A stretch of DNA of 13,059 nt. It comes from Campylobacterota bacterium. Lineage in GTDB: Bacteria; Campylobacterota; Campylobacteria; Campylobacterales; Sulfurimonadaceae. Of this stretch, positions 8,953 to 13,059 are shown piece by piece. The stretch's first letter is position 1; each line of letters opens with the position of its first letter. The notes beneath the pieces are model-generated. The model saw nothing but the letters and a program-made list of their open reading frames with translations, made no database searches and was not told the DNA's origin. The DNA lies in contig JAYEMF010000019.1 of NCBI GenBank assembly GCA_034717975.1, positions 1 through 13,059 of the forward strand. The letters run 5' to 3'. Made by a program: the position numbers and the translations under genes.

Positions 8953-10266
8953 GTGAAAAAGATTTTAACTTTAATTGCTGCTGTCGTTGCTCTTGCCGGT
9001 GGTTATATGGCTTATAAAGAGGCTTCTAAAGTGTTGCCGTTCTACGAACAGTTGACGCAGGAGCATGTGGGTACAGAGGTTGATCTGCAATCAGACGAAC
9101 AAAAGGATGCGCATTTCGTCGGAGCTGCCAAGTGTCTGGAGTGTCATGAAGATAATCATAAAGCCTGGAGCCACTCCCGTCATCCTAAAATGATACAAGA
9201 TCCGCACATTGACCCCTCTGTCGTAGTGGCAGACTTCTCACAACTTCCTTCCGATGCTGATTTTGCCCTGAAAGATGCGGTCTACACGGTTGGCGGAAAG
9301 TTCAAACAGCGGTTTATGATGCGAAAAGATCATAATGGCAGTGAAGATTATGTCCTTGGCAATTACCAATGGAATGTTCAGACTCAGAAGTGGCAGGGGT
9401 TCAAACCGTGGAAGTATTGGTACAAAGATGCATACCCGCATGATAATGGGCAGTTGCCGACTTCAAGGGCCTGTGATGGCTGTCACTTTACAGGGTTTAT
9501 GTCACAAGAGAAGCGAGTCGATAATGGCATAGCCTGTGAATCATGTCATGGACCGGCATCTGAACATGTGAAAAAGCCGAAGTCAAAAGTCCACCTGGCT
9601 TCACTCAGCGATCCTGTTCGACAAAATGAGGTCTGCCTGCAGTGCCATATGAGAAATAGAGACAGTCGCCTTAAAGAGCACAATATGAGTGAGATCTATG
9701 GTGATGCCAGAGACTACCCTTTTGGTTATGAAGCGGGTAGAGCTTTGAGTGAGTATAAGCTGGTAGCTCCTTTTGTCCTGGGAGAGGAGACTAAAGAGTT
9801 CTATGCCAATGGTATGGGTAAGAAAAACCGTATGCAGGGCAATGAGTTTGTTCACTCCATCAAAGGCAAGCACGGCATAACCTGTATAAACTGCCATGAT
9901 CCGCATACCCTTGAACCGACAGCAGAAAAGAACAGCGGAAATGACCTATGTATGAAGTGTCACGGTTTCGGCTCAGTTATAGGACCGCACCAGGAGAGCC
10001 TGGAAAAGCATACTCACCATAAAGCCACTTCAAAAGGCTCGCTCTGTGTTGAGTGTCACATGCCTAAAGTCGGGAAACATACCGGTAAGTCTCCTATTAC
10101 TGTAAGAACCCATATGTTTGGATTTACAACACCGAAAGAGACCCTGGAGTATAAAATGCCCAAAGAGACAAATGCCTGTTATGCCTGTCATGAAAAAGAC
10201 AGAGATATGAAAACACTTCAGCAGGACCTGGAAGCATGGGGCATGCTCGGTTGGGATAAAAGGTAA
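8953..10266 (+). CDS. Exported or membrane-anchored octaheme c-type cytochrome of unknown function
   Basis: GTG start with SD-like GGTGA (8939-8943). N-terminal hydrophobic segment MKKILTLIAAVVALAGGYMAY. Eight CxxCH motifs: CLECH (9133), CDGCH (9472), CESCH (9535), CLQCH (9634), CINCH (9883), CMKCH (9949), CVECH (10045) and CYACH (10177). Many extra His residues (e.g. HTHH) are available as distal ligands. Confidence 0.93.
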   Translation: MKKILTLIAAVVALAGGYMAYKEASKVLPFYEQLTQEHVGTEVDLQSDEQKDAHFVGAAKCLECHEDNHKAWSHSRHPKMIQDPHIDPSVVVADFSQLPSDADFALKDAVYTVGGKFKQRFMMRKDHNGSEDYVLGNYQWNVQTQKWQGFKPWKYWYKDAYPHDNGQLPTSRACDGCHFTGFMSQEKRVDNGIACESCHGPASEHVKKPKSKVHLASLSDPVRQNEVCLQCHMRNRDSRLKEHNMSEIYGDARDYPFGYEAGRALSEYKLVAPFVLGEETKEFYANGMGKKNRMQGNEFVHSIKGKHGITCINCHDPHTLEPTAEKNSGNDLCMKCHGFGSVIGPHQESLEKHTHHKATSKGSLCVECHMPKVGKHTGKSPITVRTHMFGFTTPKETLEYKMPKETNACYACHEKDRDMKTLQQDLEAWGMLGWDKR

Positions 10267-10272
10267 ATAGAA

Positions 10273-11997
10273 ATGATGAGTAAACCAGTAGGGAAAATAG
10301 CATTTTACTTTACCCTGTTGTATGCAATACTGATCGGCTCTATATTTAATTTCTACACAGATATATTGTCTGGTTACAACAAGAATCTTGCCTCAACACA
10401 AAATAAAATAACCGGTGTCAAATACTTAAAGTTGTTGCACAAACTTAGTGCCGATACCATCAATATGCAAGGTCACGGTATACTAAAGCAGTCAATGCAA
10501 GCAAATATAAAAGCGATCTACACCTTTCAAAGAATCCATCCTGAGTTTCACAATAGCACTTTAAATAAACACTTGGAATCCATAGATAAGCTTCATGAAA
10601 ATCATAAGGATGCTCATTATTATGATTTTTTTGATTATATGAATCATGAAAATTACATTGTGGGAAACAAGGCTGAAATACTCTTTTCTCAAGACAAAGA
10701 GCAATATTTTCTAGGTACGCTTATGACACACTACCTGCCTGAGTTTTTAATCTCGCTTGGTATTTCGCATAATATTTTAGAAGATTTTGTGGAGAGTAGG
10801 GATATGGATGCAACTAAAAAGAGCATTTACATAGAGCAAAACAAACTGGTGTATTTAAGTTCGGAAGAGCTGCATAACATCATCAGCCTGCTTCGTGAGT
10901 ATGTTGATACAAAGAACTTACAAAATATAATAGAGAAGGTTCATAAGACTCTAGAGCAGTTAAAGGCAAGCAAAGGTGGTCTTGTCATTTTAAACGATAA
11001 TGGGAAAAGTTTTGAGTCAAGGCTGAAAACAACACATAAGTTAGTTGATTTAGCAGAAGAGTTAAACTATCAGAACACAAAGTTATTAGAAAAGTTGTTA
11101 GCCAATGACGAGAAATATTTCAGTGACAAGATCATCTATTACAGATATCTTCTGATCTTTATGCTCATCTTGGTTACAGCAATATTCATATACTCTTTCC
11201 GCATTGTCAACTCCAATATCAAAAAAGACAAGGAGTTGGAAGAGTTAAATGAGTCTTTACTGCGAAGAGTAAATGAAGAAGTGTCACAAAACAGGAAAAA
11301 AGATAAGCAAATGATGCAGCAAAGCCGACTGGCCCAGATGGGTGAGATGATAGGTATGATAGCGCATCAATGGCGACAGCCTCTTTCTGCCATTAGCGCT
11401 ACAACTGCAAGTATGCATCTAAAAGCAAAAGTAAATAAACTTGATAAAGATACGGCACTGGAACTCTCAGAACGAATATCGGACTATTCCCAACATCTAA
11501 GTTCTACTATAGATGACTTTAGAGATTTTTTTAAACCCAATAAAGAGAAGAGGGAGACCTCTTATAACGAACTAGTACAAAGTGTTTTAGGGATCATAGA
11601 AGTTTCAATTATAAATAAAAATATAGAATTAATACAAGAGTTGGAGTCTGAAAATACTTTTAATACCTATCCGAATGAGATAAAGCAAGTCATATTGAAT
11701 TTAATCAAAAATGCAGAAGAGGTCCTGATAGAAAAAAAGATAATAAATCCAAAAATCACTATAAAAACCTCTGGCACTATATTGACGGTAAGTGATAATG
11801 GCGGTGGAGTCTCAGAAGAGATTATAGATAATGTTTTCGACCCGTATTTTTCAACAAAAGTAAAAAAAGATGGGACCGGACTGGGACTTTATATGTCAAA
11901 AATCATTATTGAAGAACATTGCGGCGGCAAGCTGAGTGTATACAATGATAAGGATGGTGCTGCTTTTAAAATAATATTGGGAGCAGACAGTGACTAA
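10273..11997 (+). CDS. Two-TM sensor histidine kinase with a periplasmic domain of about 260 aa (HisKA, HATPase_c)
   Basis: TM1 IAFYFTLLYAILIGSIFNFY and TM2 YLLIFMLILVTAIFIYSF (from 11146). Kinase motifs IAHQWRQPL, QVILNLIKNA, DNGGG, FDPYFSTK and GTGLGL. Begins 6 nt after the cytochrome stop; alternative ATG at 10276. Confidence 0.92.
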   Translation: MMSKPVGKIAFYFTLLYAILIGSIFNFYTDILSGYNKNLASTQNKITGVKYLKLLHKLSADTINMQGHGILKQSMQANIKAIYTFQRIHPEFHNSTLNKHLESIDKLHENHKDAHYYDFFDYMNHENYIVGNKAEILFSQDKEQYFLGTLMTHYLPEFLISLGISHNILEDFVESRDMDATKKSIYIEQNKLVYLSSEELHNIISLLREYVDTKNLQNIIEKVHKTLEQLKASKGGLVILNDNGKSFESRLKTTHKLVDLAEELNYQNTKLLEKLLANDEKYFSDKIIYYRYLLIFMLILVTAIFIYSFRIVNSNIKKDKELEELNESLLRRVNEEVSQNRKKDKQMMQQSRLAQMGEMIGMIAHQWRQPLSAISATTASMHLKAKVNKLDKDTALELSERISDYSQHLSSTIDDFRDFFKPNKEKRETSYNELVQSVLGIIEVSIINKNIELIQELESENTFNTYPNEIKQVILNLIKNAEEVLIEKKIINPKITIKTSGTILTVSDNGGGVSEEIIDNVFDPYFSTKVKKDGTGLGLYMSKIIIEEHCGGKLSVYNDKDGAAFKIILGADSD

Positions 11998-13059
11998 CAT
12001 AGAAAATGTAATAAAACACTCACAGCCCCTCAGGCTTTTATATGTAGAAGACAATGAAGAAGCCAGAGTCTCAATGCAGGGACTTTTAGGAGAATTTTTT
12101 AATGAGATAACCGTTGGGGTGGATGGTGAAGATGGTTTTGAAAAGTTTAAAAATCATCCCATAGACCTAATTATCACCGATATCAATATGCCTCGCCTGA
12201 ATGGCCTGGAGATGACAAAAAAATAAGACAAATCAACAAAAATGCACCCATCCTGGTGCTCTCGGCCTATAATGAAACAGATTTTTTTATGGACAGTATC
12301 AAGCTGGGTATTGAGGGATACCTGCTAAAGCCTATTAGAATGGATCAGTTCTTACAGGCTTTATCCAAATGCATTGAAAATCTAAATCTAAAAAAAGAAA
12401 ACCTTGCATATAAAAACTCTTTAGAACAGAAAGTACACTTGCAGGTAGAAGAGTTAATGCACAAAGACAAGCTCCTGATACAACAGTCAAAAATGGCAGC
12501 AATGGGTGAGATGATAGATGCTATTGCCCATCAATGGAAACAGCCGCTGAATGCAATAGCTCTGAAAAGTGAATTTATAAGTGCCTTGGCCAATGAAGAC
12601 GGGGCAATAGATAAAGAACATATAGATAAATGCAGAACAGATATAAAAAAACAGATAGATCATTTAATAGATACAATTGATGAATTCAGGAAATTTTTTA
12701 GACCAAATAATAATATAACACCTATAAATATAAACTCTCTTCTGAATACAATCACTCTTCTGCTGAAAGATGAACTGATCAAGCATACCGTTAGCGTTAA
12801 TATACTGTGTGACGAAACTATAGTTATAAATGCAAATGAAAATGAGATAAAACATCTTTTTATCAACCTTGTAAATAATGCAAAAGATGAGATGGTGAAA
12901 AGCGGTATAAAAAATGAAGAGAGGATAATCGCTATAGAGTGCAGTGAAAAAAATGAAGAGGTGATGTTTTCAGTAAAGGACAACGGCCGAGGGATACCGG
13001 AAAATGTAATAGAAGAGATCTTTAAACCACATTTTACTACCAAGCAAGATGATGGCGGT
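11990..13059 (+). pseudogene. REC-HisKA-HATPase_c hybrid kinase interrupted by a -1 frameshift at A7 (12217-12223); 3'-partial
   Basis: The first frame (GTG 11990) gives LYVEDN...ITDINMPRLNGLEMTKK and stops at 12224-12226. The -1 frame from 12223 reads IRQINKNAPILVLSAYNETDFFMDSIKLGIEGYLLKP...GEMIDAIAHQWKQPL...INLVNNAKD...VKDNGRGIP...IFKPHFTTK with no stop to the window end. This could be a true pseudogene, a recoded gene or a homopolymer sequencing error. Confidence 0.85.

Follow-up and report, generated by a model that had tools for sequence, protein, structure and literature searches.

An octahaem cytochrome c gene recurrently associated with a NIT-like sensor kinase gene in Sulfurimonadaceae: a candidate cytochrome-dependent sensory unit

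The cytochrome and kinase genes

We analysed a stretch of 13,059 nucleotides (nt), hereafter the window, from a Campylobacterota bacterium of the family Sulfurimonadaceae (GenBank assembly GCA_034717975.1; genome of 2.52 Mb, 99.9% complete), which makes up the first 13,059 of the 23,086 bases of contig JAYEMF010000019.1 (C19). The window carries the gene of an octahaem cytochrome c, here called cyt1, and, after 6 nt and without any terminator-like site on the + strand between the two genes, that of a histidine kinase with two transmembrane helices (Table 1). A sequence-only reading of the window had described this pair in the same terms, a protein of 437 amino acids (aa) with eight CxxCH motifs placed 6 nt before a two-helix kinase, and the sequence agrees; it had gone on to propose that the cytochrome is a periplasmic antenna for the kinase. 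We report here that the association of the two genes is real, recurrent and asymmetric, that the cytochrome has no obligate role as a sensor subunit, and that a facultative unit in which the kinase input depends on the cytochrome is an even bet.

Table 1. Features of the window and the related cassette elsewhere in the genome (positions are those of the window unless a contig is named)
Feature	Position	Strand	Basis and remarks
92-aa open reading frame	6677-6955	+	Between OmpR regulator and REC-GGDEF-EAL; no family match, no paralogue in genome
REC-GGDEF-EAL response regulator	7085..8833	+	119 nt upstream of cytochrome gene; Pfam Response_reg, GGDEF, EAL
Weak sigma-70-like promoter match	8855..8882	+	Upstream of cytochrome gene; 9 of 12 consensus positions
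Octahaem cytochrome c (cyt1), OcwA/MccA-like, 437 aa	8953..10266	+	GTG start; 8 CxxCH
Probable N-terminal signal anchor of cyt1	aa 4-21 = nt 8962-9015	+	Anchor statistics
Two-transmembrane-helix histidine kinase, 574 aa	10273..11997	+	ATG start; Pfam, sequence and AF2 model
Predicted NIT-like periplasmic domain of kinase	aa 32-288 = nt 10366-11136	+	AF2, structural alignment, ESM Atlas
HisKA and HATPase_c of kinase	aa 356-568 = nt 11338-11976	+	Pfam
N-terminal half of REC domain, first piece of REC-kinase hybrid	11990..12226	+	GTG start; Response_reg profile positions 2-62 of 111
A7 homopolymer, frame loss of REC-kinase	12217..12223	+	Then stop TAA at 12224-12226
Rest of REC, with HisKA and HATPase_c, in another frame	12227..13059	+	Listed open reading frame starts at 12256 and continues to contig position 13296
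cyt2 and cyclase cassette	G000 contig C130:30186-32556 = L090:5198-8557	-	Sequence and domain search

An octahaem cytochrome of the OcwA/MccA branch

The haem motifs of cyt1 (CLECH, CDGCH, CESCH, CLQCH, CINCH, CMKCH, CVECH and CYACH) are conserved across 45 sequences. All 16 motif cysteines are kept in 19 close sequences (alignment A1), 14 of them in invariant columns, and the alignment has no conserved cysteine outside the motifs. Pfam and NCBIfam return generic multihaem matches only, each below the family-specific cut-offs. The best relative of solved structure is OcwA (6i5b; phmmer E = 3.3e-17, 22-23% identity), and Foldseek, run with an AlphaFold2 (AF2) model of cyt1 (predicted local distance difference test, pLDDT, 87.3), puts the same structure first (E = 1e-16, template modelling (TM) score 0.64), ahead of the S-layer undecahaem OmhA (6qvm, E = 2.4e-9) and MccA (4rkn, E = 2.6e-8); NrfA chains are found at E >= 4.7e-3 only. 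Aligned by HMMER, the eight motifs correspond to OcwA haems 1-4 and 6-9; the fifth OcwA motif has no counterpart, and the model has a beta-sheet insert with strands at aa 109-149. Sequence and predicted fold place cyt1 in the OcwA/MccA branch of the NrfA superfamily. The distal His-His over haem 2 of OcwA aligns with a family-conserved KKNRxQGNEF stretch in cyt1, which would fit an anion pocket.

The NrfA enzymes are defined by an active-site haem motif CxxCK and by NrfH or NrfBCD partner genes. We rejected an assignment of cyt1 to NrfA, as all its motifs are CxxCH with no CxxCK, PF02335 gives 15.5 bits against a cut-off of 24.1, and there are no partner genes on the contig. We likewise rejected MccA (no special haem motif, no conserved extra cysteine, no mccBCD-like genes nearby), the DmsE/MtrC decahaem families (with scores far under the cut-offs, as also for MccA and NrfA) and the MccSep/ExtKL polysulfide reductase, described as a pentahaem selenoprotein (PMC13510729), for which there was only a weak 27-residue NCBIfam match. 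The cyt1 family comprises 784 database clusters at E <= 0.001, labelled "hypothetical", "CXXCH cytochrome family" or the like, and collapses to one cluster at 50% identity, with the next relative at 53%. Most of its longer relatives (P0271-P0299, ~770-850 aa, 22-30% identity) are multihaem domains fused to TPR repeats. The source genome has four more open reading frames (ORFs) with five CxxCH each (369-422 aa), on contigs C77, C102 and C149 (two ORFs).

The sequence-only reading had called the cytochrome exported. Its periplasmic side is retained; "signal-anchored" is the better description, because the N-terminus consists of MKK and ~18 uncharged residues, an AxA site is found in just 12 of 75 orthologues and AF2 models the region as one long helix. 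Thus an uncleaved helix at the N-terminus probably tethers cyt1 to the cytoplasmic membrane, so that the protein faces the periplasm and is not released.

A divergent NIT-like domain in the kinase

The core of the kinase is of the class I type (PF00512, 31.1 bits; PF02518, 59.8 bits; matches to PDB kinase cores down to E = 4.9e-21), and hydrophobic helices at about aa 9-31 and 288-311, seen in both sequence and model, flank an outer domain of 255 aa. Sequence searches with this region gave nothing: Pfam has no family match to aa 1-330 in any of nine family members, its NIT model (PF08376) has none at E <= 1 in the same number of sensor-family members, and a profile of the N-terminus has none among PDB sequences. 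The domain is modelled by AF2 (pLDDT 87.5) as all-helical, with seven to eight helices. Foldseek found no match to this model at E <= 0.001, with McpS and TorS as weak rows only. An exhaustive structural aligner (VIA-align) ranked the NIT domain of NasR (4akk_B) first, with Z = 19.2 and a root-mean-square deviation of 4.0 over 247 residues at 5% identity, followed by single four-helix bundles of ~130 residues with Z <= 15.5. A language-model search of the ESM Atlas placed 27 of 30 feature matches in NIT-bearing cluster sets (top score 0.91), and the Atlas models of NIT-bearing clusters agree with the kinase sensor at TM scores of 0.78-0.86. The periplasmic domain is predicted on this basis to be a divergent NIT-like double four-helix bundle. 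Its family has 32 invariant positions, K191 among them, located in NHENY and THYLPE stretches.

NIT domains are self-sufficient binders of small anions, and the modelled kinase would have a complete ligand-binding-type domain of its own, with no need of an antenna, a point that counts against dependence on the cytochrome. The kinase might then be a self-contained detector of nitrate, nitrite or a related anion. The cytochrome would have no part in the signal and would act in the same pathway as an enzyme or be a target of the regulation, and the adjacency would be a matter of co-regulation or co-transfer of functionally related genes. We consider this alternative possible, if unlikely. The NIT-like fold and language-model features speak for it, as the NasR domain is described as a nitrate-binding module (PMC7496416), and so does the report that OcwA, the closest solved relative of cyt1, reduces nitrite and hydroxylamine (PMC6703420). 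Arginines have been proposed to hold nitrate in NasR (PMC7496416), yet no arginine is found among the 32 invariant positions of the sensor-family alignment. A self-sufficient sensor would also suit the use of the same domain with several outputs (histidine kinase (HK), HK-REC, PAS-HK-REC and PAS-GGDEF), mostly amid housekeeping genes. The NIT-like domain is thus a modular family that Pfam misses (loci L111-L132 and L082-L089); one of its subgroups lies in a conserved asd-UPF0114-hemE context.

The association of kinase and cytochrome is real and asymmetric

We surveyed 201 genomes of the family, which are related to each other and many of which are fragmented metagenome-assembled genomes (MAGs). 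The cytochrome is present in 40 of these, over 12 of the 23 genera. Strong matches to the kinase sensor domain (E <= 3e-35) were found in nine genomes, and all nine have the cytochrome. The 161 cytochrome-free genomes yielded no strong match and one weak match (22% identity, in a 76%-complete genome). The co-occurrence is significant without correction for relatedness (Fisher test, p = 2e-7), and the overlap is seen within genera as well: five of five sensor-bearing genomes have the cytochrome in a genus where it is present in 9 of 17 genomes (p = 0.02), and two of two in a genus where it is present in 6 of 54 (p = 0.01). In the source genome the sensor domain is single-copy, the NIT-like hidden Markov model (HMM) picking up one remote paralogue.

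The two genes are adjacent in three of the nine genomes that have both, compared with a chance of ~0.0008 per genome. A metagenome scan with the sensor alignment returned 27 loci, three of which have the cytochrome next door, in two distinct arrangements. There are six arrangements of sensor and cytochrome in all, with different flanking genes in each: tandem in the window and at L060, where the kinase ATG overlaps the cytochrome TGA (ATGA); convergent, with 3 nt between the stops, at L035 and L030; and divergent, with 29-101 nt between the starts, at L119 and L116/L117. Adjacency that recurs against so low a chance means that the association is real. It is also asymmetric, the sensor needing the cytochrome and not the converse, and it does not depend on orientation.

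We also considered that there may be no functional link, a mobile stand-alone cytochrome gene having landed by chance in a 22-kb signalling island. Several features would fit such an accident: the extremely variable neighbourhoods of the cytochrome; the share of signalling ORFs in the genome (6.1%, 150 of 2457) and a contig given over to signalling; the drop in G+C from 0.47 within the cytochrome gene (9001-10000) to 0.35-0.37 in the kinase genes behind it (10001-12500), a step that falls at the gene junction; and the far greater conservation of the cytochrome (58-86% identity) than of the kinase (31-54% over the sensor domain). Adjacency to one single-copy sensor family recurs nonetheless in six arrangements, its frequency far exceeds the chance expectation, and the sensor is seen only in cytochrome-bearing genomes, which makes an accident of this kind very improbable.

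No obligate sensor role for the cytochrome

The neighbourhoods of the cytochrome were compared at 72 orthologous loci outside the source genome (58-86% identity, from the scan, one genome per species); L050 and L059 were left out of the set, as the ORF caller did not recover their cytochrome gene. Signalling genes lie immediately downstream at 12 of 64 loci (six GGDEF/EAL, three kinases, one REC and two HDOD), in addition to one Crp and one LysR regulator, and immediately upstream at 6 of 65. Any signalling gene is an immediate neighbour at 16 of the 72 loci, against ~12% expected from the genomic share of signalling ORFs, a modest excess among related genomes. A same-strand downstream kinase resembling that of the window is found at L060 only, and the NIT-like HMM recognised none of the remaining neighbours of the cytochrome as a member, the convergent HAMP-GGDEF-EAL proteins of L004, L029 and L073 included. 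At L029, a GGDEF-EAL protein with a Tll0287-like domain (c-type haem, PAS-like; PF11845) is encoded directly upstream of the cytochrome (L029:5984-7999, + strand), with the convergent HAMP-GGDEF-EAL gene downstream.

The sequence-only reading had noted that the window lacks genes for NapC/NrfH, NrfD, cytochrome b, a porin, a molybdoenzyme or a cytochrome c synthase. This holds for the whole of contig C19, where none of these, nor any Ccm gene, is present. As that reading would lead one to expect, there is no respiratory or electron-transfer partner among the 129 immediate neighbours of the orthologues, one COX4_pro ORF excepted.

Several observations weigh against a kinase that depends on the cytochrome. 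The genomes are related and not independent of each other, and the p-values are accordingly too favourable. The cytochrome occurs without this kinase type in 31 of its 40 genomes, and the 50 cytochrome-positive genomes reached via their loci have the sensor in 11 cases and lack it in 39; in the orthologue set this kinase type is beside the cytochrome at 3 loci and missing at the other 69 of the 72. The 354 genes within three positions of the cytochrome fall into 251 clusters, the largest represented at nine loci, and the neighbours are mostly housekeeping genes, for example rho, glnS, uvrB, hisF, frr, surE and genes of a signal-peptide peptidase and of rRNA methylases. In six of the nine genomes with both genes these are on different contigs, which in fragmented MAGs does not imply distance. 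At L060, the sole other tandem case, the assembly has a disrupted cytochrome frame; the convergent and divergent layouts are incompatible with co-transcription; and L113 has a closely related kinase after an EAL gene, with no cytochrome present. Finally, none of 31 longer homologues fuses the cyt1 family to a kinase, GGDEF or methyl-accepting chemotaxis protein (MCP) domain. That the orthologues are for the most part not linked to signalling genes is largely the outcome that the sequence-only reading had itself named as contradicting its proposal, and by that measure the idea of an obligate antenna fails. The proposal of an antenna thus keeps its linkage beyond chance, expressed in the co-occurrence, the six arrangements and the paralogous cassette described below, and loses its obligate character.

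That all three orientations are seen is typical for regulator-target pairs, and would agree with a kinase that senses its anion independently of the cytochrome. On the other hand, a general nitrate/nitrite sensor would be expected to be useful in the 161 cytochrome-free genomes too, none of which has a strong match, and no DNA-binding regulator is encoded beside the pair.

A nine-haem paralogue is paired with a diguanylate cyclase

The source genome holds a sole paralogue of cyt1, cyt2 (28-31% identity), on contig C130 (Table 1). The sequence represents a single gene of ~450 aa with nine CxxCH motifs, broken here by a 1-nt shift in a run of A; its orthologues are intact (444-463 aa). One base past the cyt2 stop starts the gene of a 662-aa dCache_3-HAMP-GGDEF protein. 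In the census, cyt2 is present in 8 of the 201 genomes, and in all eight this cyclase gene follows on the same strand with an overlap of 0-4 nt, as a translationally coupled pair, while the outer flanks differ. Strong matches to the periplasmic domain of the cyclase are found only in those eight genomes; four matches at 20-22% identity occur in other genomes, without cyt2.

Such a mutual dependence of cyt2 and the cyclase is, at the level of gene content, the signature of proteins that would work together, and the cassette is the strongest, albeit indirect, support for a coupling of cytochromes to sensors. A cyclase is not a transcription factor, and therefore a regulator placed beside its target cannot explain this cassette; its output through cyclic di-GMP (c-di-GMP) is thus a further difficulty for independent sensing.

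The signalling island

The remainder of contig C19 (~10 kb; C19:13060-22176 = L091) carries six additional signalling genes (REC-PAS-HD, FIST, PAS-kinase, MCP, PAS-GAF-PAS-kinase and a NarL-type regulator) and a ParE toxin gene. The cytochrome is therefore embedded in a 22-kb one-strand signalling island with about 15 consecutive + strand signalling genes. Those within the window include REC-PAS-GGDEF, an NMT1-type binding domain fused to a PAS-PAS-kinase, REC-kinase, OmpR and REC-GGDEF-EAL. The earlier statement that every other recognisable gene of the window is a signalling gene is borne out by Pfam: 8 of the 9 remaining ORFs have signalling domains (REC, PAS, GGDEF, EAL, HisKA, HATPase or OmpR), and the ninth is the domain-free ORF of 92 aa. 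The nearest matches of the locus in public genomes are in Sulfurimonas, Sulfurovum and further Campylobacterales MAGs, and its DNA is present in four DNA runs, all from one brine-metagenome study.

The REC-GGDEF-EAL protein encoded before the cytochrome is a possible output partner of the kinase. Its homologues (41-52% identity over the EAL part) are encoded immediately upstream of the cytochrome at L006 and L015, and at L113 an EAL gene (34% identity to that of the window) lies 7 nt upstream of the NIT-like kinase, with no cytochrome between. The promoter-like site in front of the cytochrome gene is a lead only, as sites of this kind are no more numerous in the region than shuffling would lead one to expect. 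Judged by eye, many cytochrome orthologues have a TATAAT-like element 20-45 nt before the start, and inspection of the sequences upstream of 46 orthologues showed no common regulatory motif apart from such -10-like elements.

The kinase gene was said to overlap a REC-kinase hybrid. The overlap, of 8 nt, and the domains (REC, HisKA and HATPase_c) are as claimed, with the reservation that the hybrid is split by a 1-nt frameshift at the A7 run; one extra A would give back a normal receiver domain. Contigs of two runs, X1 and X2, which cover 8800-12516 and 9644-12516, respectively, have identical ungapped letters at A7. Because both carry the same letters, the frameshift is not a one-off assembly slip and is a real variant or a pseudogene; X1 is possibly the source sample, and X1 and X2 come from the same study as the other runs. 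Slippage or phase variation at the A7 run is possible.

A facultative cytochrome plus reporter kinase

We arrive at the following reading for positions 8953-11997, in which all statements on substrate and function of cyt1 rest on family analogy. The cytochrome would be an autonomous, membrane-tethered periplasmic redox protein whose most likely substrate, as for its relatives, is a small N- or S-oxyanion that is reduced at haem 2, and it could receive electrons from quinol or soluble cytochromes with no dedicated partner gene. The NIT-like kinase would be an optional add-on that reports on the cytochrome, its input depending on the cytochrome either by contact or through a reaction product; we give this facultative unit an even chance. 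In the first case, the membrane-anchored cytochrome would make lateral contact with the NIT-like domain; in the second, the NIT-like domain would bind the product of the cytochrome's reaction. Given that the input depends on the cytochrome at all, direct contact appears rather doubtful. The signal may then pass into a phosphorelay and c-di-GMP network formed by the REC-GGDEF-EAL protein encoded upstream and the REC-kinase, now frameshifted, encoded downstream.

One might speculate further that the membrane-anchored OcwA-like cytochromes of Sulfurimonadaceae are dedicated co-receptors, which would dock on the periplasmic domains of signalling proteins and, according to their redox or ligand state, gate phosphorelay and c-di-GMP output. 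This generalisation is a tentative one. Just as tentatively, the partners would be the NIT-like kinase for cyt1 and the dCache_3 diguanylate cyclase for the nine-haem paralogue.

Sulfurimonas and related bacteria are dominant at sulfidic redox interfaces and very rich in signalling genes, almost none of which, to our knowledge, has a known input. If a multihaem cytochrome does feed a kinase or a cyclase, this would explain how such bacteria sense electron-acceptor chemistry, and would add a new type of input to two-component and c-di-GMP signalling. If the co-receptor reading is true, there would be a new class of cytochrome-coupled sensors, by which a sulfur oxidiser links electron-acceptor chemistry directly to behaviour. 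The conserved cyt2-cyclase cassette is a clean two-gene system for testing the idea. Short of that, the analysis defines two families, the abundant unnamed octahaem cytochromes (the 784 clusters above) and the divergent NIT-like periplasmic sensors that the Pfam models in use today miss.

Comparison with known systems

MccA of Wolinella succinogenes, the octahaem copper sulfite reductase (4RKM/4RKN), has a CX15CH haem motif, a copper-binding cysteine pair and mccBCD neighbours. It is like cyt1 in having eight haems of the same set, in coming from the Campylobacterota and in being the third-best fold match. In contrast, the TM score is just 0.39, MccA has ~660 residues against 437, and cyt1 has plain CxxCH motifs throughout, no cysteine pair for copper and no mccBCD-like neighbours. 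OcwA, described as a nine-haem cell-surface terminal reductase of Thermincola potens (PDB 6I5B; PMC6703420), is the best match of cyt1 in both sequence and fold, with the same order of haem motifs 1-4 and 6-9; by the same account, the MccA haems match OcwA haems 1-4 and 6-9 and haem 2 is the active site. The beta-sheet insert in the cyt1 model resembles one that OcwA has in common with MccA. However, cyt1 has eight haems and OcwA nine, the KKNRxQGNEF stretch stands where OcwA has His-His, and cyt1 is probably signal-anchored in a Gram-negative periplasm whereas OcwA is located on a Gram-positive cell wall.

The periplasmic domain of the kinase has its best counterpart in the NIT domain of NasR (4AKK, PF08376), both by the alignment over 247 residues (Z = 19.2) and by the language-model features that point to NIT clusters. 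The differences are an identity of 5% and the lack of a Pfam NIT match, and also the setting, as the kinase domain is periplasmic and joined to a kinase whereas that of NasR is cytoplasmic and joined to ANTAR.

Sensors that work through an accessory protein include TorT-TorS, YfiR-YfiN and H-NOX-HnoK, and YfiR controls its cyclase from the periplasm. The likeness is one of concept, with a separate extracytoplasmic protein, in some cases a haem protein, that is encoded beside a membrane kinase or cyclase and controls its activity; the closest case is HbpS-SenS-SenR, where HbpS is described as a haem-binding redox sensor for the kinase SenS (PMC4991794, PMC3754957). Among the partners in these systems, no multihaem c-type cytochrome of the NrfA superfamily is known; cyt1, in contrast to them, is usually encoded without the kinase and is at most a putative binding partner. 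Within the literature collection searched, no title or abstract described a kinase or diguanylate cyclase that has a multihaem cytochrome as its separate partner, and the listings on Sulfurimonas multihaem or octahaem cytochromes showed no paper on cyt1. Finally, c-type haem sensor domains are also found inside receptors, as in the PAS-haem MCPs GSU0582 and GSU0935 of Geobacter and in proteins with the Tll0287-like domain. These share with the present system the use of covalent haem c in periplasmic signalling, but they carry one haem within the receptor polypeptide, whereas cyt1 is a separate, enzyme-like protein with eight.

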